Part shown: one piece after another, positions 5,944 to 59,749 of the stretch
Position numbering within the stretch: position 1 is the stretch's first letter
How the letters are laid out: the number at the start of each line of letters is the position of its first letter
Source of the DNA: Clostridia bacterium
GTDB taxonomy: Bacteria > Bacillota > Clostridia > Oscillospirales > CAG-272
DNA length: 64,000 nucleotides
Assembly (NCBI GenBank): GCA_017398145.1
Contig: JAFQHD010000108.1
Coordinates: 4,456 to 68,455, forward strand
Direction: 5' to 3'
The notes under the pieces: generated by a model
Seen by the model: the letters and a program-made list of their open reading frames with translations, nothing else
The model's database searches: none
What the model was told of the DNA's origin: nothing
Translations under genes and position numbers: made by a program

Positions 5944-6182
5944 TGAATTGACATCTTCGATATCATGAATTGCCGTTGGCATGAATTGTGCTACGCACAT
6001 GAATTGCACCTTTGGTGCATTAAGGAAACTTTTCGGCAAGCCGAAAACTGATTTAATTATAATTGATTTTTGCTATAGCAAAAATCTTCCTTAATGAAAG
6101 ACCTCGTCTTTCAATTCATGACGGTGTGCCGTCAATTCATGATGACAAAGTCATCAATTCATGCACCTACGGCGCAATTCAT
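5943..6182. repeat. Symmetric array: 4x CATGAATTG, central hairpins, 4x CAATTCATG, with eight palindromic variable spacers
   Basis: ATGAATTG at 5943, 5965, 5981 and 5999. CAATTCAT at 6112, 6133, 6155 and 6175. Every spacer is a 4-8 bp stem with a 3-4 nt loop. Central inverted repeat 6018-6027 / 6087-6096. Confidence 0.9.
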
Positions 6183-6219
6183 ACTAAAATAAATAATAAT
6201 TTTAAGGAGAATATAAATC

Positions 6220-6942
6220 ATGTCCGGACATTCCAAATGGAGTAACATTAAGCACAAGAAAGAAAAGAGTGACGCTGCCAAGGCGAAAATATTTACCAAG
6301 GTAGGTAAGGAGATCGCAGTTGCGGTTAAGGCAGGCGGTCCCGACCCCGTTTCCAACTCCAAGCTTAAGGAGCTTATCGCAAAGGCTAAGTCCTTAAACG
6401 TTCCCAATGACAATATCGACCGTATCATCAAGAAGTCCAGCGGTGCTGATGCCGTTGATTACGAAGAGGTAGTATACGAGGGCTACGGTCCCAGCGGCGT
6501 TGCAGTTATCGTTGAGGCTACCACCGATAACCGTAACCGTACAGGCGGTAATGTAAGACACTTCTTTGATAAGTACGGCGGAAACCTCGGTCAGAGCGGC
6601 TGCGTGTCCTTTATGTTCGAGGATAAGGGCGTTATCATCGTTGAGAGAGAAAGCGGTGCAGACGAGGACAAGCTGATGGAGGATTCTCTTGAGGCAGGTG
6701 CAGAGGACTTCGTTGCTGACGAAGAGGTATTTGAGATCTACACCGTTCCCGCTGACCTTATGGCAGTTAAGGAAGAGCTTGAGGCTAAGGGCTACGTTAT
6801 CGCGTCTGCCGAGAAGGACAAGATCCCCTCTAACTACGTTACCCTCACCGACGAAGAGGATATCAAGAAGATGAACCTTCTTATCGAGCATCTCGAAGAG
6901 GACGACGATATCTCCGAGATCTACCACAACTGGGAAGAATAA
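6220..6942 (+). CDS. yebC: YebC/PmpR family DNA-binding transcriptional regulator
   Basis: N-terminus MSGHSKWSNIKHKK is diagnostic of the family. AAGGAG RBS upstream. Confidence 0.92.
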   Translation: MSGHSKWSNIKHKKEKSDAAKAKIFTKVGKEIAVAVKAGGPDPVSNSKLKELIAKAKSLNVPNDNIDRIIKKSSGADAVDYEEVVYEGYGPSGVAVIVEATTDNRNRTGGNVRHFFDKYGGNLGQSGCVSFMFEDKGVIIVERESGADEDKLMEDSLEAGAEDFVADEEVFEIYTVPADLMAVKEELEAKGYVIASAEKDKIPSNYVTLTDEEDIKKMNLLIEHLEEDDDISEIYHNWEE

Positions 6943-6944
6943 TT

Positions 6945-6968
6945 TACAGGAGGCGAAAGCCTCCTGTA
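6945..6968 (+). terminator. Hairpin terminator after yebC
   Basis: TACAGGAGGC-gaaa-GCCTCCTGTA, a 10-bp stem. The downstream T-run is weak. Confidence 0.7.
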
Positions 6969-6972
6969 ATTA

Positions 6973-7057
6973 AATGCAGAATGCAAAATGCAAAATGCAG
7001 AATTGAGGAGATTTTTGTTGCATTAATGCAACAAAAATTTCATTACATTATGTAATG
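6973..7057 (+). repeat. Heptad array (AATGCAG/AATGCAA x4), then TTGAGGAG, a 11-bp hairpin and a second palindrome
   Basis: 7-nt tandem repeats at 6973-7002. Hairpin ATTTTTGTTGC-attaat-GCAACAAAAAT at 7011-7038. CATTACA-tta-TGTAATG at 7041-7057. Confidence 0.85.
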
Positions 7058-7082
7058 TATGTTCATAAGCGGGAAAGAAGAA

Positions 7083-8060
7083 ATGAAAAAAATCTTATTT
7101 ATAGGTACCGGCGGAACGATCAGTTCAAAGACCTCGTCTGCGGGGCTTGTTCCCGGTCTTGATACAGAAGCACTTATCACAGCTCTGCCGGATATACGTC
7201 AGCTTTGCGATCCTTATGCCCTGAGTCTCTATTCTATAGACAGCTCCGAGATGACCCCCGAGCATTGGTTGGGTATGGCAAAAGCAGTGCGTGACAACTA
7301 TGATAGCTACGACGCCTTTATAATCTGCCACGGTACAGACACCATGGCTTATTCGGCGGCGGCACTTAGTTATCTTGTACAGAACAGCCCCAAGCCCATA
7401 ATACTGACAGGCAGTCAGAAGCCTATTTCCTTTGACATCACCGATGCCAAGCGTAATCTCCGTGACAGTCTGCTCTGCGCTCTTCATCCCGACAGTGCAG
7501 GGGTAAATATAGTTTTTGACGGTAAGATAATTGCAGGCAGCCGTGCGGTGAAGGAAAAGACCTATTCCTTTGACGCTTTTACCAGCGTAAACTTCCCCTA
7601 TCTCGGATATATCAAGGGAGATCAGGTGGTCTACTATATCAAGCAGACCAAGGGTGAGGTGCGCTTCTACGATAAGATGGACGCAAGTATATTTGTGCTC
7701 AAGCCCACACCGGGTATGCCTCTTGATATCATAGATACGCTGGTACGTGACTACGACTGTCTTGTGGTAGAGTGCTACGGTATGGGAGGACTGCCAAAGG
7801 AAACTGCCGACCGTATGGCGTTTGCTCTTAAAAAGAACGACTGTCTTATAGTCATGACTACACAGGTTGCATACGAGGGAAGCAATACGGGCGTTTATGA
7901 GGTGGGCAGATATATTGGAGATAAGTTTGAATATCTCGAAGCTCACGATATGGCAAACGCCGCGCTCTATACCAAGCTGATGTGGATGCTGGGTAACTTT
8001 GAGAGAAGCGAATATAAGAAAATTTTCTATACGCCTGTAGGATTTGATATTTATGGGTAA
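7083..8060 (+). CDS. ansA: L-asparaginase, type I
   Basis: ORF 7059..8060. N-terminal active-site motif FIGTGGTISS and an HGTDTM motif. Confidence 0.88.
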   Translation: MKKILFIGTGGTISSKTSSAGLVPGLDTEALITALPDIRQLCDPYALSLYSIDSSEMTPEHWLGMAKAVRDNYDSYDAFIICHGTDTMAYSAAALSYLVQNSPKPIILTGSQKPISFDITDAKRNLRDSLLCALHPDSAGVNIVFDGKIIAGSRAVKEKTYSFDAFTSVNFPYLGYIKGDQVVYYIKQTKGEVRFYDKMDASIFVLKPTPGMPLDIIDTLVRDYDCLVVECYGMGGLPKETADRMAFALKKNDCLIVMTTQVAYEGSNTGVYEVGRYIGDKFEYLEAHDMANAALYTKLMWMLGNFERSEYKKIFYTPVGFDIYG

Positions 8061-8712: not shown

Positions 8713-9337
8713 CCTTGACGGAACTCTTATAGATTCCATGCCCATGTGGCATAATTTCGTTGGGGTTTATCTTGATAAATACGGTATGAAGCCTGACGAA
8801 TATCTTCTTAAAAACGCAAAGGATATGACCTTTGAGGAGTCTTCGGAATATATTCATAAGCATTACGATATAGGCAAGAGCCCTGAGGAAATAGTAAAGG
8901 ATATGACCGATACTGCGGCAGATGCTTACACCAATACCATACCGATAAAGCATGATGTAAAGCCCTTCCTCTTTGCCCTGCGCTGTAAAGGTGTAAGAAT
9001 GTGTATCGCTACAGCCAGTCCCCGCGAATGGGCAGAATCGGTGCTCCGTAGACTTAACATAGATCATTATTTTTCGGTGATACTCTCCTGCTATGACCTC
9101 AAGACCTCAAAGAGTGAACCTATGATATACGACCGTGCCTTTGATATATTGGGTACAGACAGAGAGACCACCTATGTCTTTGAGGATTCGGTAAACTGTA
9201 TCCGCACCGCAAAGGCGGCGGGATATAAGGTCATCGGAGTTAAGGACGAGATGTCCGCACCCGATGAGGAAGAGATAAAGAAGCTCTCTGATATCTACAT
9301 AAAGGATTTCGACGATTTCCGCGGAATGGTAAGATAA
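8687..9337 (+). CDS. HAD-superfamily hydrolase (beta-phosphoglucomutase-like subfamily IA)
   Basis: DxDGT motif (FDLDGTLIDS), with later ATAS and EDS motifs. Confidence 0.8.
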   Translation: MIITGAIFDLDGTLIDSMPMWHNFVGVYLDKYGMKPDEYLLKNAKDMTFEESSEYIHKHYDIGKSPEEIVKDMTDTAADAYTNTIPIKHDVKPFLFALRCKGVRMCIATASPREWAESVLRRLNIDHYFSVILSCYDLKTSKSEPMIYDRAFDILGTDRETTYVFEDSVNCIRTAKAAGYKVIGVKDEMSAPDEEEIKKLSDIYIKDFDDFRGMVR

Positions 9338-9361
9338 AAAGCCTGCGACGCAGGCTTTTTA
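9337..9361. terminator. Bidirectional hairpin terminator
   Basis: AAAAAGCCTGC-gac-GCAGGCTTTTT. Confidence 0.8.
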
Positions 9362-9400
9362 TAATGCGGAATTATGGATGAAAACAGTTGCCAACTGTTT

Positions 9401-9673
9401 TCATTTGTTCTTGATTATCTTATCCGGGAATACAGAGGCGTTTATCAGGTCGGCGGGGTCTATATCCAAAGCATCCGCGATATTGAAAAATATCTCAAGG
9501 GAAAAGCTGTTCGCCATACCGGGTGCTTCGATAACGCTTATAGTATTTCTGCTGGTACCTGCTTTCTCTGCCAACTCCTCCTGAGATAAGCCTCTGAACT
9601 TTCTTAAGGTGGCGATAGCTATGCCTATTTGAATAAATCTGTCCTTGTTCTTATGCGAAACTTCTGCTCTCAT
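9401..9673 (-). CDS. XRE-family helix-turn-helix transcriptional regulator (90 aa)
   Basis: HTH_3-like segment LRKFRGLSQEELAEKAGTSRNTISVIE. Confidence 0.8.
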   Translation of the reverse strand: MRAEVSHKNKDRFIQIGIAIATLRKFRGLSQEELAEKAGTSRNTISVIEAPGMANSFSLEIFFNIADALDIDPADLINASVFPDKIIKNK

Positions 9674-9751
9674 ATATATATATCCTTTAATAGTTTTTCA
9701 ACTATATTATAGGATATTTAACGGCAACTATCAGTAGAGTTAGCAAAGCAC

Positions 9752-9780
9752 TTGACAAATTAGACAAGCAAATATATAAT
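9752..9780 (+). promoter_or_regulatory. Consensus sigma-A promoter (TTGACA-17-TATAAT)
   Basis: TTGACA at 9752-9757 and TATAAT at 9775-9780, with exactly 17 nt between them. Confidence 0.75.
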
Positions 9781-9786
9781 ACATAT

Positions 9787-9916
9787 GGTATTTGCTGTTG
9801 TAGCAATACGGTTATCCGGTCGGACACCGTTCTCTCAATATTCAACTGCCGACGCTTATCGTTGTATTGATTCCGATTCGGATAACAGTAAAAGGACTTG
9901 CATCGCAAGTCCTTTT
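9787..9916 (+). ncRNA. Candidate orphan small RNA (about 130 nt) running from the consensus promoter to a terminator
   Basis: No RBS-preceded ORF. Predicted helices: 9788-9796/9802-9809; GTTATCCG 9811-9818 with CGGATAAC 9879-9886; GTCGG 9819-9823 with CCGAC 9849-9853. Terminator GGACTTGC-atc-GCAAGTCC plus TTTT at 9894-9916. The downstream gene is convergent. Confidence 0.5.
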
Positions 9917-10832: not shown

Positions 10833-10966
10833 TCTTCTACACCCTTTCCAAATTTATTTGGTGATAGTATTATAACACAAATATTATCGGATGTAAACAT
10901 GTTTTTGATGCAAAAATTAAAAAAAATATCAATAATTATATTAAAAGTTGCATTTTTCATTTAAAT

Positions 10967-12022
10967 ATGTTATACTACTGTATTATGATGAAAGAAATAC
11001 TCTGTATGATGCCCTCGGAGCTTGAAGAATTGCTTCTGGCTTACGGTGAAAAGGCATATAAGGCTAAACAGATATTTGCGTGGTTACACAGAGGTGCCGC
11101 CTTTGATGAAATGACCGATATCTCAAAGAAAACAAGACAGCTTTTAGCTGAGAATACCACCCTTGTATATCCCGAGATAGCAGAAAAGCAGGTATCAAGG
11201 CTTGACGGTACTGTGAAGTATCTATTCTCCATGCATGACGGACAGCTTATCGAGAGCGTCGTTATGCGCTACAAGCACGGTAACTCTATCTGTATCTCCA
11301 GTCAGGCGGGATGCCGTATGGGCTGTAAGTTCTGCGCGTCCACTCTCGGAGGCAGGGCAAGAGATCTCTCGGCGGGTGAGATACTGTCTCAGATAATCGT
11401 GGCACAGAAGGATATCGGCGAACGCATCGACAATGTTGTTATGATGGGTATAGGCGAGCCCCTTGATAACTATGACAATGTCATCCGCTTCCTTGACCTT
11501 GTGGGAGCCAAGGGCGGACTGAATATCGGCTACAGACATATTTCTCTCTCTACCTGCGGACTGGTGGACAAGATATACCGTCTGGCAGAGGAGAGCTATC
11601 CCATAACTCTTTCTATCTCCCTTCACGCTACCAACGATACCGAGCGAAGCGAGATAATGCCGATAAACAAAAAATGGTGTATAGACGAGCTGCTTACAGC
11701 CTGCAGAGCATATTTTGACAAGACAGGAAGACGCATCTCCTTTGAGTATACCCTTATCCATGGCAAAAACGACAGCCCACAGCAGGCTAAGCGCTTAGCC
11801 GCCCTTTTGCTTAAATATTTTTCGGGCGTGCCCTTCCATGTGAACCTCATTCCCGTAAACACAGTTGCGGAAAGCGGCTTTTCGGCGGGAGACGAGCAGA
11901 GTATTAAGAGATTTATCGACATCCTTGAAAAATCGGGTGTCAACGCCACGAAGCGCCGCAAGTTAGGCTCTGACATAGACGCTTCCTGCGGACAGTTAAG
12001 ACATAAGAAAAATACTGATTAA
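10967..12022 (+). CDS. rlmN: 23S rRNA/tRNA (adenine-C2)-methyltransferase, radical SAM
   Basis: CxxxCxxC-type motif (GCRMGCKFCAS) and the conserved KAKQIFAWLH. The start is ambiguous among the Met codons at 10967-11010. Confidence 0.9.
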   Translation: MLYYCIMMKEILCMMPSELEELLLAYGEKAYKAKQIFAWLHRGAAFDEMTDISKKTRQLLAENTTLVYPEIAEKQVSRLDGTVKYLFSMHDGQLIESVVMRYKHGNSICISSQAGCRMGCKFCASTLGGRARDLSAGEILSQIIVAQKDIGERIDNVVMMGIGEPLDNYDNVIRFLDLVGAKGGLNIGYRHISLSTCGLVDKIYRLAEESYPITLSISLHATNDTERSEIMPINKKWCIDELLTACRAYFDKTGRRISFEYTLIHGKNDSPQQAKRLAALLLKYFSGVPFHVNLIPVNTVAESGFSAGDEQSIKRFIDILEKSGVNATKRRKLGSDIDASCGQLRHKKNTD

Positions 12023-12834: not shown

Positions 12835-14532
12835 ATGATGAACGGATTTGAAAAATATGTAGGTCAGGTATTTGACGGCAGATATAAGATAACCAAGATA
12901 CTGGGCGTAGGCGGCATGGCTGTAGTGTTTGAGGCGTTTGACACCAAGCTCAACCGTATAGTAGCACTTAAGATGCTCAAGGACGAGATAGCCAACGACT
13001 CTCAGTCTGTAAAGCGCTTTATTAACGAGTCCAAGGCAGTTTCCATGCTCTCCCATCCCAACATCGTAAGCATTTACGACGTTTCGGTTAAGGATAACCT
13101 TAAATATATCGTTATGGAGCGTGTGGACGGAATTACGCTTAAGAGCTATATGACACAGAAGGGCGTACTCTCTCTCTCCGAGACCATAAGCTTTGCGGAG
13201 CAGATACTCCGCGCCCTTGAGCACGCACATTCCAAGGGTATCATCCACCGCGATATCAAGCCTCAGAATATTATGCTTCTCAAGAACGGCAGGATCAAGG
13301 TAACCGACTTCGGTATAGCTAAGCTTCCCAACGCCGAGACTGTTACAATGACCGACAAGGCTATCGGTACGGTATTCTATATCAGCCCCGAGCAGGCAAG
13401 CGGTAAGGCTATAGATCAGCGAAGCGACCTTTATTCGCTTGGTGTTCTTATGTATGAGATGACTACGGGCAAGCTTCCCTTTGATGCGGAGAGCCCCGTT
13501 TCGGTTGCGCTCATGCAGGTCAACGCCACCCCTAAGCCTCCACGTGAGATAATGCCCAATATTCCTTTGGGCATCGAGCAGATAATTATGTTGGCGATGG
13601 AGAAGCAGCCTGAGCGCCGTTTCCAGAACGCTCCCCAGATGCTCCGCCATCTGCTCCAGATAAAGAACAACCCCACGTATGTATTTAAGACCAAGAGCCG
13701 TGACGGAAGGCTCACTGTCGGTGATAACGACAGCTCCAAGGGAAGCTCCAAGGCTCAGAAAAAGCCTTCTGTCAAGGGAGGCAGATCTATGTTTCCGGTG
13801 ATATTGGGCGTTACTCTTGCATTCCTTCTTGTCGTTGGAATATCGGTGGGCGTTGTTATCGACCGCTTCAAGGATTCTCAGGAGATGACCGCATCCCAGA
13901 CGGTCAAGGTTCCGGATCTTATGGGACAGATCGTCACAGATGATCTTAACAAGGAGCTTGTAAAGCAGGGCTTCAAGATCACGGTCACCTATGACGACAG
14001 TCAGCCCGAGATCGAGGTAAATACCGTTCTTAAGCAGTCTCCCGTGGCAGGCACCGAGCGAAAGATCATTCCCGGTCAGCAGTACTGCGATATCAATCTT
14101 ACCCTCAGCCGAGGCAAGGATGCCAAGGTGCTTCCCGACTTAACGGTCAAGGATTACCGCGAGGTTGAGATCAAGCTCACCGAGATGGGTCTCAAGTTCG
14201 TAGAGGAATTTGAAGAAAACGACAATATTCCCGTTGGTTATGTTATCCGTACCATGCCTATGGCGGGTGAGAAGGTCAATGCAGGCGAGACGGTTACCCT
14301 CTATATCAGCAAGGGTACGGACGTCAAGTATATTCAGGTTCCTAACTTCGTAGGTCTTACCGAGGCGCAGGCTAAGGCGCAGCTTGTTCAGTACAATCTG
14401 GCGCTGGGCGAGATAACCTACGAGCAGTCCTCCAAGCCCAAGGGAACGGTCATAGAGCAGAGCCGCGAGGCATACGAAAGCGTACCCGAAAAGACGACTA
14501 AGATCGATCTGGTAATAAGCTCGGGACAGTGA
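12835..14532 (+). CDS. prkC: Ser/Thr protein kinase with C-terminal PASTA repeats
   Basis: ORF 12790..14532. Kinase motifs HRDIKPQN and DFG, one TM helix, then three PASTA-like repeats. The ATG at 12835 follows GAGGA. Confidence 0.92.
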   Translation: MMNGFEKYVGQVFDGRYKITKILGVGGMAVVFEAFDTKLNRIVALKMLKDEIANDSQSVKRFINESKAVSMLSHPNIVSIYDVSVKDNLKYIVMERVDGITLKSYMTQKGVLSLSETISFAEQILRALEHAHSKGIIHRDIKPQNIMLLKNGRIKVTDFGIAKLPNAETVTMTDKAIGTVFYISPEQASGKAIDQRSDLYSLGVLMYEMTTGKLPFDAESPVSVALMQVNATPKPPREIMPNIPLGIEQIIMLAMEKQPERRFQNAPQMLRHLLQIKNNPTYVFKTKSRDGRLTVGDNDSSKGSSKAQKKPSVKGGRSMFPVILGVTLAFLLVVGISVGVVIDRFKDSQEMTASQTVKVPDLMGQIVTDDLNKELVKQGFKITVTYDDSQPEIEVNTVLKQSPVAGTERKIIPGQQYCDINLTLSRGKDAKVLPDLTVKDYREVEIKLTEMGLKFVEEFEENDNIPVGYVIRTMPMAGEKVNAGETVTLYISKGTDVKYIQVPNFVGLTEAQAKAQLVQYNLALGEITYEQSSKPKGTVIEQSREAYESVPEKTTKIDLVISSGQ

Positions 14533-14535
14533 TAT

Positions 14536-14582
14536 AATTCGTAATTAAATGAAGAAAATAGTGTCCAAAGGACACTATTTTC
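14536..14582 (+). repeat. Short heptad array (AATTCGT AATTAAA) plus a terminator hairpin
   Basis: GAAAATAGTGTCC-aaa-GGACACTATTTTC at 14554-14582. TAATTAAATGA gives a stop codon in all three frames. Confidence 0.8.
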
Positions 14583-14896: not shown

Positions 14897-15793
14897 TTAC
14901 TTTTTATCCCATGCATGAATGTTCTTAAGTATCCCGTGAAGCTCAAGGAAACTTTCGTGTCGGCTCTTCGGTATCTTACCCTCTGATAGAGCCTCAAGTA
15001 TGGCACAGCCCTCTTCCTTTGTATGAGTGCATTTTGTGTATTTACACTCGCCTAAATAAGGCCTGAACTCGCGGAAGGTATAGGGAAGCTCATCTACGGT
15101 GTAATCATCGTATATGGTGGGATCAAGCATAGAAAATCCGGGAGTGTCCGCTATAAAACCGTTATAGCTTTCGTCACCGAAAAGGTCGTTGAGGGAGTAC
15201 AGTTCAACATGACGGGTGGTATGCTTGCCGCGCTGTATCTTGCGGCTCACGTCTCCCGTAGCAAGTCCCAGAGCGGGGAAGAGAGCATTAAGAAGAGTGG
15301 ACTTGCCTACCCCTGAAGCTCCCGAGAACGCAGATATCCTGCCGCGGCATTTTTCCTTGAAGAATTCGAGCAGCTCCGCTTTGTCGGAATCGGGGTCTGT
15401 TACAAACACATCCACACCGATGGAGGAATATATTTCTTTCAGCTCATCTGCTCTTTTGGGGTCAAGGTCATTCTTGGTTACTATGACCACAGGCTCGATT
15501 CCCTTGTGGTCGGCGATAGATATCATCTTGTCAAGGGTTGCGGTGACGGGCATAGGCTTTTTTGCTGCCGCTACTATAAAGAGGATATCAAGATTTGCCA
15601 TAGGGGGACGGATAAGAGTGTTTCTTCGGTCGATGATATCAACGATACAGTCATCCTCTATCACAACTCTGTCACCTACGTAGGGAGTTATATTTTCGTG
15701 GCGGAAAACACCTCTTGCACGGCATTGAACAATATTACCGTCGCAGAGGATATCATAGAGACCGCCGAGACCTTTTATAATAATACCTTCCAT
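14897..15793 (-). CDS. rsgA: Ribosome small-subunit-dependent GTPase A
   Basis: N-terminal OB domain, circularly permuted GTPase (TKNDL ... GASGVGKST) and a C-terminal zinc knuckle (CKYTKCTHTKEEGC). Confidence 0.9.
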   Translation of the reverse strand: MEGIIIKGLGGLYDILCDGNIVQCRARGVFRHENITPYVGDRVVIEDDCIVDIIDRRNTLIRPPMANLDILFIVAAAKKPMPVTATLDKMISIADHKGIEPVVIVTKNDLDPKRADELKEIYSSIGVDVFVTDPDSDKAELLEFFKEKCRGRISAFSGASGVGKSTLLNALFPALGLATGDVSRKIQRGKHTTRHVELYSLNDLFGDESYNGFIADTPGFSMLDPTIYDDYTVDELPYTFREFRPYLGECKYTKCTHTKEEGCAILEALSEGKIPKSRHESFLELHGILKNIHAWDKK

Positions 15794-15798
15794 ATAAA

Positions 15799-15848
15799 AA
15801 TTCTCAATTCTTAATTCTCAATTTAAGGTTACTTTTGCCCTGCAAAAG
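15799..15848 (+). repeat. Heptad array (AATTCTC AATTCTT AATTCTC AATTTAA) plus a hairpin, immediately upstream of the rsgA start
   Basis: 7-nt repeats at 15799-15826. Hairpin CTTTTGC-cct-GCAAAAG at 15832-15848. Confidence 0.8.
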
Positions 15849-15901
15849 CTTCATATATATTATATTTATAACAAAAATATTTGTCAAGTAAAGGAAAAAA
15901 G

Positions 15902-18955: not shown

Positions 18956-19759
18956 ATGGGATTTTTAGAAGGAAAGACAGCTATAATCACAGGCGGCGGT
19001 AAGGCAGAGCCCTTAAAGGACGGCTCCGCAGGCTCTATCGGATACGGTATTGCCATCGCATATGCAAAGGAGGGGGCAAATCTTGTCCTCACGGGCAGAA
19101 ACGTAAAGAAGCTCACAGAGGCAAAGGAAGAGCTTGAGAGCCTCTATGGTATCAAGGTCCTTGCTTGTCAGGCAGATATAAGCCGCGCAAATGACAATGA
19201 AGCAACAGTAAAAAATGTTATCGACAATACGATAGCGGCATTCGGACGTATCGACGTTCTTATCAACAACGCTCAGGCGTCTGCGTCCGGTGTAACCTTG
19301 GCAGACCATACCACGGATCAGTTTGATCTTGCTATGTATTCGGGCCTTTATTCCGCTTTCTACTATATGAAGGCTTGCTATCCTTATCTTAAGGAAACAA
19401 AGGGCTCTGTTATCAACTTTGCTTCCGGTGCAGGTCTCTTCGGTAACTTCGGTCAGTCTGCTTATGCGGCAGCTAAAGAGGGTATCCGCGGACTTACCCG
19501 TGTTGCGGCAACCGAGTGGGGCAAGGACGGTATAAACGTAAACGTAGTATGTCCTCTTGCTTGGACCAGCCAGCTTGAGAAGTGGGCAGAGTATAACCCC
19601 GAGGCATTCAAGGCAAACGTTCATATGCCTCCCATGGGTCACTACGGCAACTCCGAGCTTGAAATAGGACGTGTTTGCGTTCAGCTTGCATCCCCCGACT
19701 TTAAGTATATGTCGGGCGAGACCCTTACTCTTGAGGGCGGAATGGGACTCAGACCTTAA
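18956..19759 (+). CDS. Short-chain dehydrogenase/reductase (SDR)
   Basis: ORF 18941..19759. TGGG cofactor motif (TAIITGGG), NNAQ and YxxxK (YAAAK). Confidence 0.85.
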   Translation: MGFLEGKTAIITGGGKAEPLKDGSAGSIGYGIAIAYAKEGANLVLTGRNVKKLTEAKEELESLYGIKVLACQADISRANDNEATVKNVIDNTIAAFGRIDVLINNAQASASGVTLADHTTDQFDLAMYSGLYSAFYYMKACYPYLKETKGSVINFASGAGLFGNFGQSAYAAAKEGIRGLTRVAATEWGKDGINVNVVCPLAWTSQLEKWAEYNPEAFKANVHMPPMGHYGNSELEIGRVCVQLASPDFKYMSGETLTLEGGMGLRP

Positions 19760-19760
19760 G

Positions 19761-19820
19761 AATTCTCAATTCTCAATTCGTAATTAAATGTGAAAAGTCG
19801 GTTCATTTGAACCGACTTTT
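19761..19820. repeat. Heptad array (AATTCTC x2, AATTCGT, AATTAAA) plus a bidirectional terminator hairpin
   Basis: 7-nt repeats at 19761-19788. Hairpin AAAAGTCGGTTCA-tt-TGAACCGACTTTT at 19793-19820. Confidence 0.85.
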
Positions 19821-20224
19821 CAATTTCTATCAAAATATTCATAGCACGCGAAGCGGATCACATCCTCGGTTACATTGAAATGCTCTGCCAATTCCCATAC
19901 CTCGGTGATGCCTTGGGTAAACGCCTTCTCTAAATTTCCCTTTGGCAAAATATGCTCGATCATCCACATATTTGCCTTATGTTCGCAGCGGCTTCTGGTC
20001 TCAAGGGGAGAGTAGGGTCGGTAGAAGGCTCCCGTCATACAGTGGCCGATCTCGTGAGCAAGATGAACCTTGCGCTCAGGCTCCGTCATATCTCCTTCAT
20101 CCATGATTATATATTTTTCTTTCCCGTCCTCGAAGGATACAGACTTATTAAGCGGCAGTCTGCAATAATCGAGGACTATTTCATTTTCATCACAAAACAC
20201 TGCACATTGTGTGCTTGTTCTCAT
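19820..20224 (-). CDS. ImmA/IrrE-family metallopeptidase
   Basis: HEXXH motif (HLAHEIGHCM). 134 aa, immediately downstream of an XRE repressor gene. Confidence 0.85.
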   Translation of the reverse strand: MRTSTQCAVFCDENEIVLDYCRLPLNKSVSFEDGKEKYIIMDEGDMTEPERKVHLAHEIGHCMTGAFYRPYSPLETRSRCEHKANMWMIEHILPKGNLEKAFTQGITEVWELAEHFNVTEDVIRFACYEYFDRN

Positions 20225-20231
20225 TTGATTA

Positions 20232-20564
20232 CTACTCCTCTTTACTGTGTCTTTTCTTTATCAGCTCTACGGCAAACATAGCTTCCTTCCACATTTCGTC
20301 GGTGACCTCTCCGTCCCCCCCGAATAGAGCAAGCTTGATATCGTTATCGGTGACAGTGCTCTTTGCTGCAGATTCCTTGCCCGTTGTCAGATAGTCGAGA
20401 GAAACACCGAAATGGTCGGCTATCTTTTTAAGCTTATCCTGCTTGGGGGTGGATTTTCCGTTCTTCCAATCGCTGATAGTGGCGGGGGCTATACCCGTGG
20501 CTTTACATACCTGATATGCGGTCATACCGTTCTTTTGTAACAATTCAACAAAAATCTCATACAT
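20232..20564 (-). CDS. XRE/ImmR-like HTH repressor (110 aa)
   Basis: HTH segment MTAYQVCKATGIAPATISDWKNG. Paired with the ImmA gene. Confidence 0.85.
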   Translation of the reverse strand: MYEIFVELLQKNGMTAYQVCKATGIAPATISDWKNGKSTPKQDKLKKIADHFGVSLDYLTTGKESAAKSTVTDNDIKLALFGGDGEVTDEMWKEAMFAVELIKKRHSKEE

Positions 20565-20598
20565 TTTTTGTACGCTCCTACAAAACCGAAAATTATTA

Positions 20599-20775
20599 AA
20601 GAAATCTTACATAAACCCATTGACATTTTCGGAAAACCGATATATAATTTGTTGTAGAGTTTAAGAAATCTTAACTAAACGGGGCTAAGATTTAATATTT
20701 CCGAAATCATTGTATCAGATTTCCGAAGTATTGTCAAGATAAATTTTAAGATTTCTTAAAATTACTTTTCGGTAT
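20599..20775. promoter_or_regulatory. Divergent control region: consensus promoter plus two families of repeated operator-like motifs
   Basis: TTGACA at 20620-20625 and TATAAT at 20643-20648 (17-nt spacer, plus strand). TAAGA-AA-TCTTA at 20599-20609 (partial), 20662-20673 and 20747-20758. TTTCCGAA/TTCGGAAA at 20626-20636, 20697-20707, 20719-20729 and 20765-20775. Confidence 0.7.
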
Positions 20776-20869
20776 AAGAACGAAACAAACCACTCATTTG
20801 CTTCGCTATAAATTTTAGTACAATACATGTCCAAAATATGGGACAGAAAGGAGGAAAAGCTTGGCATAC

Positions 20870-20950
20870 ATGTGTGTAAAAGGGCCATATGAATGTGACG
20901 CGTGCGGTTTCTGCACAAAGAACGAGGATAACGAAGAAAGTGAGGAGTAA
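20870..20950 (+). CDS. Possible Cys-rich micro-ORF (26 aa, or 29 aa from the TTG at 20861)
   Basis: MCVKGPYECDACGFCTKNEDNEESEE. AGGAGG at 20849-20854 sits 6 nt before the in-frame TTG. The ORF ends 2 nt before the next gene. It is below the ORF-track cutoff. Confidence 0.3.
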   Translation: MCVKGPYECDACGFCTKNEDNEESEE

Positions 20951-20952
20951 AA

Positions 20953-21261
20953 ATGAAAAATATTGATTTCAATAAAGTTATAATAACCGGCAAAGCCAAG
21001 GAGAATCCTGAGTTAAAACTGACTACAACAGGTATAGCTGTAACAAATTTCATCCTTGTAAGCGAGGGTGTCAAATCAAATGAATATATAGATGTTACCG
21101 TATGGGGAGAGCTTGCGGAAAAGGTGTATAAGGAAATAGACCCCGACCGACGGATAATGGTGGAGGGGAGGCTTCACCGTACTGCCTCGGAGGAGGGCTC
21201 CTACGGAAGACTTGAGATCACGGCAAACCGAATATTCGGAATAGGAGGAATGTATGATTAA
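20953..21261 (+). CDS. SSB-like OB-fold protein lacking the acidic C-terminal tip (102 aa)
   Basis: Pattern N(K/R)VxLxG ... ELR.T..G..V..F.LA ... W typical of the SSB core (NKVIITGKAKENPELKLTTTGIAVTNFIL ... VTVWGELAE ... VEGRL). GAGGAG RBS. Confidence 0.65.
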   Translation: MKNIDFNKVIITGKAKENPELKLTTTGIAVTNFILVSEGVKSNEYIDVTVWGELAEKVYKEIDPDRRIMVEGRLHRTASEEGSYGRLEITANRIFGIGGMYD

Positions 21262-21466
21262 GTACACAGAGGATATATATACTACCTGTCCCTTTTACCT
21301 CAAGGAGGCGAGCTCACGCCTCATCTGTGAGGGGATCCCTGAGGGAACAAGTAACGTAACCGTATTCACGAACAGCCTTCTCAAGGCAAGACATCAGAAC
21401 AGATATTGCCGTAATGATTACGGTGCCTGTGCTCTGTGTAAAGCTTTAATGAGTAAATATGACTAA
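21254..21466 (+). CDS. Hypothetical Cys-rich protein (70 aa)
   Basis: Overlaps the previous gene by 8 nt. Six Cys residues. I recognise no family. Confidence 0.5.
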   Translation: MIKYTEDIYTTCPFYLKEASSRLICEGIPEGTSNVTVFTNSLLKARHQNRYCRNDYGACALCKALMSKYD

Positions 21467-24404: not shown

Positions 24405-24480
24405 TGGTCGAAGTGTGGAGATTCGAACTCCAGGCCTCCAGTACCCGAAACTGGCGCGCTACCAACTGCGCTACACCTCG
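24405..24480 (-). tRNA. tRNA-Pro (anticodon CGG), CCA encoded
   Basis: Manual cloverleaf: acceptor CGAGGTG/CACTTCG, D stem GCGC/GCGC, anticodon stem CCAGT/ACTGG with loop TTCGGGT, T arm TGGAG-TTCGAAT-CTCCA. 76 nt. Confidence 0.9.
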
Positions 24481-33363: not shown

Positions 33364-34204
33364 AAAGAACCGTATAGAGGGTGGCACTCTCTATCTTGTA
33401 GCCACACCTATAGGTAACCTCTCCGACCTTTCGGACAGAGCGTATAAGGTGTTAAGCGAGGTTGATTTTATCGCCGCAGAGGATACAAGAAACACAGGCA
33501 AGCTCTTATCCGCCATAGGTATATCTAAGTCTATGGTATCCTACTACGAGCATAACAAAAAGTCTAGCGGCGAGCATATCTTAAAAAGACTTCTTAAGAG
33601 ACAGAGCTGTGCTCTTGTGACCGATGCGGGAACTCCCGCCATCAGCGACCCGGGCGAGGATATCGTACGTGACTGCATAGAGGCAGGTATAAAGGTGACA
33701 AGCGTTCCCGGAGCTGCGGCAGTTATAGTTGCTCTTACTCTTTCGGGCATGAACACCCGCCGCTTTGTCTTTGAGGGATTTTTGCCTGTCAAGGGAAAAG
33801 AACGGAAGGAAATGCTGACCGAATTATCCACCGAAAAGCGTACTCTCGTTCTCTACGAAGCACCTCATAAATTAAAGAATACCTTAGACGATCTCCTTGA
33901 ATATTTCGGCTCCGACCGTCGAATAGCTCTCTGCCGTGAGCTTACAAAGCTCAATGAAGAGGTAATGCGCTGTACTTTATCCGATGCCGTGGAGTATTAC
34001 GGTCAAAACGACCCCAGAGGCGAGTATGTTCTCGTCATAGAAGGAGCAAAAGGGGAAAGCATTGGTGCGTTTTGGCAGGATATGGCTGTAGATACTCATA
34101 TCGAATACTATATCTCTCAGGGATTGAAGAAGATGGATGCCATAAAGCAGGTTGCTAAAGACCGAGGGGTTGCGAAGAACGAGATATATAAGCAGACAAT
34201 ATAA
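33344..34204 (+). CDS. rsmI: 16S rRNA (cytidine1402-2'-O)-methyltransferase
   Basis: Tetrapyrrole-methylase fold with the characteristic N-terminus LYLVATPIGNLSD and AEDTR. Confidence 0.9.
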   Translation: MSSQSNEKNRIEGGTLYLVATPIGNLSDLSDRAYKVLSEVDFIAAEDTRNTGKLLSAIGISKSMVSYYEHNKKSSGEHILKRLLKRQSCALVTDAGTPAISDPGEDIVRDCIEAGIKVTSVPGAAAVIVALTLSGMNTRRFVFEGFLPVKGKERKEMLTELSTEKRTLVLYEAPHKLKNTLDDLLEYFGSDRRIALCRELTKLNEEVMRCTLSDAVEYYGQNDPRGEYVLVIEGAKGESIGAFWQDMAVDTHIEYYISQGLKKMDAIKQVAKDRGVAKNEIYKQTI

Positions 34205-34270
34205 GTGCAAAGTGCAAAATGCAAAGTGCAAAGTTTAGGAGGATTTCCGTACTTTGGTACGGAAATCTCC
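34205..34270 (+). repeat. Heptad array (GTGCAAA x3 / ATGCAAA), then TTTAGGAGG and a 13-15 bp hairpin
   Basis: 7-nt repeats at 34205-34232. Hairpin 34238-34270 (GGAGGATTTCCGTAC-tttg-GTACGGAAATCTCC). It fills the rsmI/dapA convergent gap. Confidence 0.85.
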
Positions 34271-54525: not shown

Positions 54526-55299
54526 ATGGAAATTATCGATACCCACGCTCATTACGATGACAGCAGGTTCGATGGTAATAGAGATGAGCTTATAGCCGAT
54601 GTTTTAAACATCGGCTATATCCGAAATATCATCAACTCATCCTATTCTATCGATTCCGCAAAGGTAGCAAGAGAGCTTTCAAGAAAATATCCGCAGTTCT
54701 ATTTTACCGCAGGCATACACCCCCACGACAGCGGAAAGGCAGGGGATAGGGATCGAGCACTTTTTGAGCTTGAGGGACTGCTGCGTGACCCTAAATGTGT
54801 TGCGCTCGGCGAGATAGGTCTTGACTATCATTACGATTTTTCAGACCGTGACACACAGAAAAAATGGTTTGAGTGGCAGATGCAGTTAGCTGACCGTCTG
54901 GGCGTTCCCGTTGCCATACACGACCGTGAGGCTCACGGCGACTGTATGGATATGGTAAGAAAATATCCCGAGGTCATAGGCGAGTTTCATTCCTTCTCAG
55001 GTTCGGCAGAGATGGCAAAGGAGCTGGTCAAGAGAGGGTGGTATATCTCCTTTTCCGGAGTAATAACCTTCAAGAACGCTTCAAAGATTCTTGAAGCGGT
55101 AAAGGCAGTACCCCTTGACCGCATAATGATAGAAACAGACGCTCCCTACCTTGCTCCCGTACCCAAGAGAGGTAAGGACAACAACTCCGCCTATATGAAG
55201 TACACAGCAGAGGCGGCAGCCAACGTGCTGGGTATGGACGTAGAGGAATTCTGTGCGGCAACCACCGAGAATGCCAAGAGACTTTTCGGCATTAAGTGA
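54526..55299 (+). CDS. tatD: TatD-family metal-dependent hydrolase
   Basis: DTHAH N-terminal motif, plus later HDRE and ETDAPY motifs. Confidence 0.9.
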   Translation: MEIIDTHAHYDDSRFDGNRDELIADVLNIGYIRNIINSSYSIDSAKVARELSRKYPQFYFTAGIHPHDSGKAGDRDRALFELEGLLRDPKCVALGEIGLDYHYDFSDRDTQKKWFEWQMQLADRLGVPVAIHDREAHGDCMDMVRKYPEVIGEFHSFSGSAEMAKELVKRGWYISFSGVITFKNASKILEAVKAVPLDRIMIETDAPYLAPVPKRGKDNNSAYMKYTAEAAANVLGMDVEEFCAATTENAKRLFGIK

Positions 55300-55331
55300 A
55301 TAGAGAATAGTGAATAGAGAATAGTGAATAA
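55297..55331 (+). repeat. Heptad array TGAATAG/AGAATAG x5 bridging the tatD stop and the next start
   Basis: TGAATAGAGAATAGTGAATAGAGAATAGTGAATAA. The tatD TGA is the first repeat unit. Confidence 0.9.
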
Positions 55332-55335
55332 CAAA

Positions 55336-57929: not shown

Positions 57930-57944
57930 TTTACTTTCTCCAAT

Positions 57945-58110
57945 CGTTATTCACTATTCGTTATTCTCTATTCACTATTCACTCTTAAAAAGCATCAGTG
58001 AATAATGAATAGTGAATAGTGAATAGATAATAGTGATGGTTGAAAACTGTTGCTTTAATGCAACAGTTTTCTTCCTTAATTTTGCATTTTTTATTTTGCA
58101 TTTTGCATTT
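57945..58110. repeat. Composite element B: inverted heptad arms, TGGTT, 12-bp hairpin, TTCCTTAAT, (TTTGCAT)n
   Basis: CTATT-type arm 57945-57983 and GAATAG-type arm 57997-58036. Hairpin GAAAACTGTTGC-tttaat-GCAACAGTTTTC at 58042-58071. TTTGCAT repeats at 58081-58110. Confidence 0.9.
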
Positions 58111-58120
58111 TTACAATGCT

Positions 58121-59600: not shown

Positions 59601-59749
59601 TTATTCGGTTATTAACTATTCACTATTCGTTATTCACTATTCACTAACTATCGGTTTTATATAACAAGTGAATAGTGAATAGAGAATAGATAATAGTGAA
59701 TAGTGATGGTTGAAAACCGCCAAAGCGGTTTTCTTCCTTAATTTTGCAT
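59601..59749. repeat. Composite element C, with the same architecture as element B
   Basis: Arms at 59601-59646 and 59668-59706. Conserved GTGATGGTTGAAAAC. Hairpin GAAAACCGC-caaa-GCGGTTTTC at 59712-59733 (stem differs from B, pairing kept). TTCCTTAATTTTGCAT at 59734-59749 overlaps the PHP stop codon. Confidence 0.9.

Follow-up and report, generated by a model that had tools for sequence, protein, structure and literature searches.

Heptamers are the most abundant class of long simple sequence repeats (LSSRs) in many prokaryotic genomes, and polymerase-footprint slippage has been proposed for heptanucleotide simple sequence repeats (SSRs) (Mrazek, Guo & Shah 2007, as summarized in PMC4679880 and PMC4692102); such repeats have been reported to be sporadic in their phylogenetic distribution (PMC4679880). 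GGGAATC repeats in Xanthomonas and GGGGA(T/C)T repeats in Nostoc are found at intergenic sites shared by related species, vary extensively in length and sequence, and occur as inverted pairs (Rehm et al. 2015, PMC4692102); the same paper cites the heptameric short tandemly repeated repetitive (STRR) sequences of cyanobacteria. TAACTGA repeats, known from marine Beggiatoaceae, cyanobacteria and Bacteroidetes, lie just upstream of starts without ribosome-binding sites, and S1, cold-shock proteins (Csp) or CsrA have been suggested to bind them (MacGregor 2015, PMC4679880). Here we examine tandem arrays of seven-nucleotide (nt) units of the AATTCTC type in a 64-kb stretch of DNA from a Clostridia bacterium (contig JAFQHD010000108.1; the whole stretch is referred to below as the window), which a first-pass annotation, made from the letters alone, had described at three sites as heptads fused to terminator hairpins and supplying stop codons.

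These arrays are probably lineage-specific heptanucleotide microsatellites, made and homogenised by slippage where spacer DNA next to a hairpin is free of constraint, and now and then copied from one locus to another. The analysis extends a known but poorly understood phenomenon, the heptamer microsatellites of bacterial intergenic DNA, to an uncultured genus of gut Clostridia, and it provides a natural series in which four successive unit sequences stand at one orthologous site beside one conserved hairpin.

Period-7 arrays in intergenic DNA

Relatives of the window were found by an RsgA scan of GTDB species genomes, which matched only metagenome-assembled genomes (MAGs) of uncultured Clostridia, Eubacteriales and Oscillospiraceae, mostly from the ruminant gut; the window itself belongs to an uncultured Clostridia/Oscillospiraceae lineage of that habitat. 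Five of the loci (L001-L005) represent congeneric species, with RsgA identities of 89-94% and DNA identities of about 78-87%; RsgA identity falls to 76-81% in L006-L008 and to near 50% or lower in the remaining matches. The census of arrays covers a 150-kb sample of the genus, made up of the window (64 kb) and L001-L005 (about 86 kb).

A lag-p self-identity scan of the window identified 10 period-7 arrays, where shuffles that preserve dinucleotide composition give 0.25. The same arrays are caught at periods 14 and 21, periods 4-6, 8-13 and 15-20 stay at the shuffle baseline, and the Tandem Repeats Finder program recovers the same set. Across the intergenic DNA of the window (about 4.1 kb), self-identity reaches 0.320 for lag 7, while the neighbouring lags 6 and 8 give 0.282 and 0.284; echoes appear at lags 14 and 21, while coding DNA carries a period-3 signal only. 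The first-pass annotation had called the density of heptads unusual and had proposed to compare lag 7 with its neighbours; both the density and the excess at lag 7 are borne out, period 7 being the sole enriched tandem period.

All 25 arrays detected in the window and L001-L005 lie between open reading frames (ORFs), some overlapping a stop codon by 1-2 nt and many starting 0-2 nt from one, and 19 of the 25 have a hairpin with a stem of 8 bp or more no further than 12 nt away. The flanking genes are unrelated housekeeping genes. We found no consistent rule of orientation relative to genes, hairpins or the replication strand (as read from GC skew), and the occurrence of arrays in both orientations relative to genes argues against a strand-specific RNA signal. 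No array matches an Rfam 15 covariance model, whether the cutoff is the gathering threshold or E <= 1; the single match in the window is a tRNA (24408-24480, minus strand). Since the arrays are identical in 5-6 independent same-species assemblies from different samples (99.8-100% identity), we rule out an assembly artefact.

Among the relatives, L001-L005 carry 1-5 arrays per 11-21 kb, L006 gives one weak match, and a tandem-repeat scan of the RsgA loci L007-L017 found none. A minority of the distant Oscillospiraceae loci contain arrays, most clearly L025, L029, L063 and L072; tandem periods of 6, 9, 12 and 15 at other distant loci are coding repeats. In L063 and L072, TTAGGAG / AGTTAGG arrays stand 3' of a conserved ccttaaggcaaaggg(g/a)aactttatta motif. 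The distant Clostridia MAG L025 holds a compound array of about 30 heptads (20024-20243; TCTGTTC/TCTGTAC, then TTTCCGT, then CTTTGCT and others), far longer than those seen in the window's genus.

Turnover of the arrays at orthologous sites

The clearest series is found downstream of a gene of the SDR family, where the TAA stop codon (19757-19759) is followed by G, the array AATTCTC AATTCTC AATTCGT AATTAAA (19761-19788, plus strand), TG and a hairpin, such that the array spans the gap from stop to hairpin. The hairpin (19791-19822; 14-bp stem, -23 kcal/mol, z about -7) was returned by the terminator scan as terminator-like on both strands, and separates the SDR gene from an M78-peptidase gene that converges with it; the right arm of the hairpin overlaps the stop codon of the M78 gene. 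Phased from the stop codon, the site reads TAA-G AATTCTC AATTCTC AATTCGT AATTAAATG in the window, TAA-G AATTCGG AATTTGG AATGCGG AATTAATG in L004, TAA-G AATGCAA AATGCAG AATGCAG AATGCAG AATTAATG in L003 and TAA-A AGTGCAA AGTGCAA AATGCAA AGTGCAA AGTTAATG in L001. These four share the hairpin AAAAAGTCGGTTC...GAACCGACTTTT, and in L002 and L481 the array is missing and the hairpin is different. Each array is internally homogenised, around an overall unit consensus of ARTKCNN. Because the units are joined by one-base steps beside the same hairpin, we regard the array as homologous and its unit as having drifted. The same chain at this orthologous site (AATTCTC to AATTCGG/AATGCGG to AATGCAG to AAGTGCA, across four species) ties the AATTCTC family to the ARTGCAA/AAGTGCA families, in agreement with the earlier suggestion that heptad families of the window are related. 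SDR homologues with 84-89% identity come from unrelated gene neighbourhoods and contributed two informative loci only, L481 and L482.

At the prkC gene the array is shorter and its turnover is seen in copy number. The TGA stop codon (14530-14532) is followed by TAT, two plus-strand units with 5/7 bases in common (AATTCGT AATTAAA, 14536-14549) and a hairpin returned by the terminator scan on both strands (14554-14582; 13-bp stem, -21.6 kcal/mol, z about -6). This hairpin is retained with compensatory changes in all six genomes, while the array comprises three units in L002, two in the window, about two in L005, about one in L003 and none in L004 and L001, which is the pattern that the first-pass annotation itself had named as refuting a function of the arrays.

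The third array is missing from all five relatives. It lies between the rsgA and methyltransferase genes (15799-15826; AATTCTC AATTCTT AATTCTC AATTTAA on the plus strand), with rsgA on the minus strand and its start codon at the complement of 15791-15793; read on that strand it is a (GAGAATT)n array that ends 5 nt before the rsgA ATG. A promoter with a full sigma-70-type consensus (TTGACA-17-TATAAT, 12/12; 15859-15887, minus strand) stands upstream, which places the array and its neighbouring hairpin within the 5' untranslated region of rsgA. The rsgA leader in the five relatives reads AATCAGGAGCAGT-ATG, with a canonical AGGAG and neither array nor hairpin, while the window has 55 nt of hairpin plus array in place of 12 nt that include this Shine-Dalgarno (SD) sequence. 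The ATG and the N-terminus of RsgA are conserved in the relatives, as is the -10 region of the promoter. Given that all five relatives keep AGGAG where the window has hairpin and array, rsgA of the window species has lost its SD, and in this gene for an important ribosome-assembly GTPase a heptad array stands in its place. Comparison with the other starts of the window, most of which carry a strong SD where they are well defined, upholds the earlier reading that no canonical SD precedes rsgA; GAGAA, found at -12 to -8, might substitute for it.

The positions of the three arrays were confirmed directly from the sequence, those at 19761 and 15799 containing four head-to-tail copies of a 7-nt unit (degenerate ones counted) and the one at 14536 two copies, or three in L002. 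The claim that each stands beside a terminator hairpin holds in part. The hairpins at 19791-19822 and 14554-14582 are strong and have the G+C-rich stem-loop, T-run and position after a gene end that define intrinsic terminators, whereas the third (15832-15848; CTTTTGC CCT GCAAAAG) has a weak 7-bp stem and no T-tract, is missing from the terminator scan list and is not terminator-like; its folding energy is -8.5 kcal/mol, and z is -2.4 for the plus and -1.4 for the minus strand. Furthermore, the heptads sit outside the hairpin stems and form no part of the terminator consensus.

Sites in the neighbourhood of yebC also differ between relatives. Downstream of the gene, a related AATGCAR array of 4.4 units (6973-7003, plus strand) lies between two hairpins and is preceded by the recurring TAATTAAATG junction; L005 has the identical array, L004 has it in inverted form, and L001 has AGAGAAA units in its place. 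Selection on the array shared with L005 was considered and set aside, since the block in which it is embedded is itself 93-99% identical and the identity of the array is no sign of special constraint. Between 4800 and 16400 the window and L005 show such 93-99% blocks (about 6400-7900 and 9200-9800) within a background of 75-90% identity, a mosaic which suggests recent recombination between the species. The argS-yebC spacer measures 20 nt in L004 and 130-276 nt elsewhere, with a hairpin and array in L001 and L005 and a 276-nt mosaic in the window. Copy number and unit therefore vary between relatives at one and the same site in five cases (SDR, prkC, rsgA, yebC and argS-yebC). In addition, the place between back-to-back hairpins that holds only AATGCGG AATTATG in the window (9338-9400) is occupied in L004 (16484-16515) by a 4.6-unit AATTGAG array. 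L004 also has, downstream of rsgA (10898-11134), (TTAGGAG)3.4 directly after the stop codon and (AACTCCT)4.6 about 180 nt further on; these inverted arrays enclose an insert with two hairpins that is missing from the window.

The window has further arrays with other units. A related AAGTGCA array (4.6 units; 34203-34234, plus strand) overlaps the stop codon of a TP_methylase-family gene and abuts a hairpin, and a GAATAGW array (4.7 units; 55298-55330, within the stretch 55298-55335, plus strand) spans the whole gap from the tatD stop codon to the start of a radical-SAM gene (GTG 55324 or ATG 55336), with neither SD nor hairpin; the latter array has a perfect 14-nt super-period and places UAG every 7 nt. 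Two composite modules precede pfkB-kinase and 6-phosphogluconate dehydrogenase genes. The first (57948-58111, within 57944-58111) consists of (TATTCAC)5, a loop, (GTGAATA)5, a terminator hairpin, TTCCTTA and (ATTTTGC)4.7, and the second (59610-59706, within 59602-59735) of another inverted (TATTCAC)n / (GTGAATA)n copy and a hairpin; in each, the inverted heptads form a long palindrome, followed by TGATGG, the terminator hairpin, TTCCTTAAT and the ATTTTGC heptads. Between argS and yebC (5944-6190), a 250-nt mosaic contains ATGAATTG four times, with another mini-hairpin after each copy; two terminator-like hairpins (6030-6047 and 6065-6086) come next, and after them four further mini-hairpins, each with CAATTCAT, the mirror image, behind it. 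The mosaic is identical in three same-species assemblies. The AATTCTC family may be linked to this ATGAATTG / CAATTCAT array, the shared AATT(C/G) core being the sole basis for the connection.

Pfam assigns the gene products around the three sites to Pkinase plus PASTA, RsgA_GTPase, Methyltransf_32, Sulfatase, adh_short, Peptidase_M78 and HTH_3. The start of the SDR protein was corrected, as a 267-aa form matches protein records and the 272-aa reading does not. Beyond the SDR hairpin (19820-21267) lie the M78 peptidase (ImmA/IrrE-like) and an XRE-type helix-turn-helix (HTH) gene as a pair, a small SSB-like gene and two genes of the metallo-beta-lactamase fold (Apyc1-like), a set reminiscent of a mobile-element or defence-related relic. 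In L001-L004 the M78 gene adjoins the SDR gene, and L481 has M78 plus HTH. At about 56.7-58 kb, gene orientation turns from plus to minus and cumulative GC skew peaks, which would fit a region resembling a replication terminus or a local strand switch only.

Probable slippage and the rival explanations

If the arrays are microsatellites, slipped-strand mispairing would have given rise to a 7-nt tandem duplication in the short AT-rich spacer that separates a terminator hairpin from a stop or start codon, a spacer which would be the only unconstrained DNA on offer. Further slippage would expand, contract and homogenise the array, including by steps of two and three units, to which the 14- and 21-nt super-periods point, and point mutations spread through the array would allow the unit to drift in either direction along the chain AATTCTC, AATTCGG, AATGCGG, AATGCAG and AAGTGCA. 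Ectopic conversion or template switching at neighbouring palindromes could occasionally copy arrays between loci and hairpin arms; template switching at quasi-palindromes may be the source of inverted arrays. Transcribed as an unstructured A/U-rich spacer, an array of this origin would contain stop codons, appear fused to a terminator or, as at rsgA, displace an SD as a by-product rather than by design. The periodicity, the intergenic position, the closeness to hairpins, the turnover between species and the stability within the species are observed; slippage and conversion are the mechanism that we infer, together with near-neutrality of the arrays.

Several observations weigh against this explanation. 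The 32-mer AAGTGCAAAGTGCAAAATGCAAAGTGCAAAGT (AAGTGCA AAGTGCA AAATGCA AAGTGCA AAGT) is found at window 34203-34234 and at L001 5298-5330 and 19233-19264, three non-orthologous loci in two species that keep the same internal variant unit, and a 25-nt part of the rsgA array that takes in its AATTCTT variant recurs unchanged in the non-orthologous array at L004 16491-16515; such identities require copying, by conversion or as a cassette, besides slippage. Run scores at lag 7 over the 150 kb are bimodal, with a background at 6-8, as at other periods, and then the 25 arrays at 9-21. These arrays range from 2.7 to 5.7 units, with none longer and hardly any excess of 2-3-unit runs, so that the length distribution departs from a simple decaying tail. 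Simple slippage explains neither this bounded length (3-6 units) nor the identical arrays at unrelated loci, nor the frequent closeness of arrays to hairpins and stop codons. Strain-level copy-number polymorphism was not seen among the 5-6 assemblies, which differ by 0.03-0.17%, a test of low power because the strains are nearly identical and the arrays short. Furthermore, an exact search of JGI metagenomes for AATTCTCAATTCTCAATTC returned at least 120 contigs, and 80 (AATTCTC)n loci were examined; among the matches listed, these span 24-71% GC, often contain inverted pairs of the form (GAGAATT)n-hairpin-(AATTCTC)n, and usually bear further heptad arrays (76 other unit types). In IMG/VR, AATTCTC has 74 loci compared with 16, 11, 16 and 26 for four composition-matched control heptads, making it about four times commoner than these, and other heptads have 49 (GAATAGT), 45 (TTAGGAG) and 36 (AATGCAA). 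The same units turn up in phages and in very distant taxa.

The interpretation that had been offered first, in which the arrays would serve, coupled to terminators, as dedicated stop pads for all three frames or as devices for frameshift capture, is extremely improbable on the evidence of the three sites. The terminal units had been said to place stop codons in all three plus-strand frames, and this is so at the prkC site (TAATTAAATGA), where every frame closes no more than 16 nt beyond the stop codon, sooner than at any other of 61 genes; at the SDR site (TAATTAAATGTGA), however, the TGA is in the frame of the second TAA and one frame stays open for 119 nt. Similarly, (GAGAATT)n had been said to close all frames of the other strand, as it does at the rsgA site, which has at least three units, but not at the SDR site, which has two GAGAATT units only and one minus-strand frame without a stop. 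Read in the direction of the upstream gene, the AATTCTC unit contains no stop codon, and it is the degenerate last units that supply the stops; AATGCAA units read free of stops on both strands. Since 7 mod 3 = 1, any heptad with a stop triplet closes every frame after three units, a property already discussed for TAACTGA repeats (PMC4679880). With plus-strand closure at one of three sites, and with arrays missing in relatives, the evidence supports neither a role of the arrays as suppliers of stop codons nor their interpretation as stop pads fused to terminators. A programmed -1 frameshift site was rejected, as the array follows the stop codon, AATTCTC does not have the form X XXY YYZ and there is no downstream -1 ORF. 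Longer SDR homologues (P0001, P0004, P0056 and P0088) owe their length to internal duplications or N-terminal extensions instead of read-through into arrays, and a CRISPR-like reading was also considered and rejected. For annotation, such arrays should not be taken for stop-codon pads or parts of terminators.

Two further explanations were considered. It is possible, if unlikely, that the arrays are selected cis-elements read in 7-nt register by an abundant nucleic-acid-binding protein with a footprint of about 7 nt, four or five monomers of which, bound beside a hairpin or start, would tune terminator read-through or SD-independent initiation. Cold-shock-domain proteins or S1 are candidates for binding RNA, and ribbon-helix-helix proteins such as plasmid omega for binding DNA. 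Such a role would accommodate the bounded length of about 3-6 units and the bimodal scores, the persistence of the SDR-site array in 4/6 species despite the change of unit, and the same units across phyla, at 24-71% GC and in phages at about four times the control frequency. In five phage contigs of IMG/VR (L240, L209, L222, L229 and L256; 53-59% GC), (AATTCTC)3-5 stands directly before the ATG of as many as seven genes per 32-kb contig, none of these starts having an SD, and some of the arrays are then followed by a second repeat, AATCCGCG / AATCTGCG; purine-rich heptads likewise stand in place of an SD at rsgA and the radical-SAM gene, and S1, Csp or CsrA binding has been proposed for TAACTGA repeats upstream of starts (MacGregor, PMC4679880). 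Against it, arrays occur in both orientations relative to genes and hairpins (both are common among 181 distinct metagenome and virus arrays, with ORF starts within 40 nt downstream at 54 against 37), units share no invariant motif beyond the loose ARTKCNN of one site, orthologous sites of close relatives do without arrays and show no disruption of flanking genes, conservation is not above the local background (as for the yebC-downstream array in its 93-99% block), and no candidate protein was identified. The stronger proposal that (AATTCTC)n-type arrays form a pan-bacterial and phage class of cis-elements, bound cooperatively in 7-nt register by a ubiquitous Csp/S1-like protein, is highly speculative. 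Were it true, array length would be kept to about 4-5 units, and the arrays would influence how hairpins form at terminators and would replace the SD at some starts (rsgA and the phage leaders), and the array but not its sequence would persist at the SDR site because unit identity would be free to drift. It is also doubtful that the arrays travel in small non-autonomous cassettes of hairpin plus heptads, like REP/BIME (repetitive extragenic palindromic / bacterial interspersed mosaic elements) or MITEs (miniature inverted-repeat transposable elements), which would bring a terminator into intergenic DNA. Cassettes would account for the identical 32-nt and 25-nt arrays at non-orthologous loci of different species, for the module of array plus GGAGGATTTCCG...CGGAAATCTCC hairpin shared by window 34203, L001 19233 and L005 10316, for the filled and empty argS-yebC sites (20 nt in L004 against 130-276 nt, with a possibly duplicated TTAA), for the inverted TTAGGAG arrays around the L004 insert of about 180 nt downstream of rsgA, and for the replacement of 12 nt by 55 nt in the window's rsgA leader. 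However, the 150 kb contain no full-length copies, no consistent target duplication and no terminal inverted repeats besides the arrays; BLAST of three array-plus-hairpin segments matched arrays or orthologous hairpins only, and no whole paralogous cassettes; the hairpin of the SDR site stays while the array alone changes; and there is no associated transposase. We therefore retain slippage with occasional copying as the probable origin, while the bounded length, the identical arrays at unrelated loci, and the occurrence of (AATTCTC)n at 24-71% GC and in phage leaders without an SD make the choice between function and slippage testable.

Comparison with known repeats

In the literature searched, neither (AATTCTC)n arrays nor repeats of this kind in Clostridia are described, literal-string matches being limited to irrelevant primers. 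The arrays can nevertheless be set beside several known systems. REP/BIME and MITE-type elements are intergenic mosaics of hairpins and short conserved linkers, often at gene 3' ends and variably present between relatives. The arrays share with them the hairpin mosaics, the location at gene 3' ends and the variable presence, but in the 150 kb show no conserved palindromic unit, defined ends or consistent target duplication, the 7-nt period being conserved instead. The omega repressor of inc18 plasmids binds WATCACW heptads in direct and inverted arrays at a few plasmid promoters. These operators are similar in form, as contiguous 7-bp units in direct and inverted order, most closely to the (TATTCAC)n / (GTGAATA)n pairs of the window; they differ in unit sequence and in being confined to few plasmid promoters, compared with dozens of chromosomal gene ends here.

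The heptads of Xanthomonas and Nostoc share with the present arrays their common intergenic sites, variation between species and inverted pairs, and the Xanthomonas GGGAATC unit resembles GAGAATT (G-R-G-A-A-T-N). In contrast, those repeats are G-rich, have been studied as G-quadruplex (G4) formers and reach far higher copy numbers, whereas the units described here are AT-rich and cannot form G4. TAACTGA repeats likewise occur in 2-6 copies with a unit found in unrelated phyla, the stops in the unit explaining their exclusion from genes, and they are similar to the leaders of rsgA, the radical-SAM gene and the (AATTCTC)n phage genes. The TAACTGA unit is not present at the three sites, which have AATTCTC, AATTCGT and AATTAAA instead, and most arrays here follow stop codons beside terminators rather than preceding starts, and belong to several unit families rather than one. 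STRR heptamers are comparable in comprising several families per genome, in their intergenic position near gene ends and in having no established function; they occur in other taxa with other units and are typically longer, and we know of no hairpin association for them. The reason for a length of seven bases, and any function of such arrays, are questions that date from the STRR and LSSR papers.

The closest correspondence is with long heptanucleotide SSRs, with which the arrays share tandem 7-nt intergenic units at many loci, the dominance of heptamers, a presence in sporadic lineages and slippage as the proposed origin. What distinguishes them is their occurrence in a gut genus of Oscillospiraceae/Clostridia, a group not mentioned in PMC4679880 or PMC4692102, and their form as short bounded arrays (3-6 units) in coexisting unit families, nearly all beside terminator hairpins. 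The excess is lineage-specific, in keeping with the report that repeats of this type are sporadically distributed (PMC4679880). Strain-level copy-number polymorphism apart, for which the test had low power, the arrays fit every testable feature of heptanucleotide SSRs of the LSSR/STRR type.

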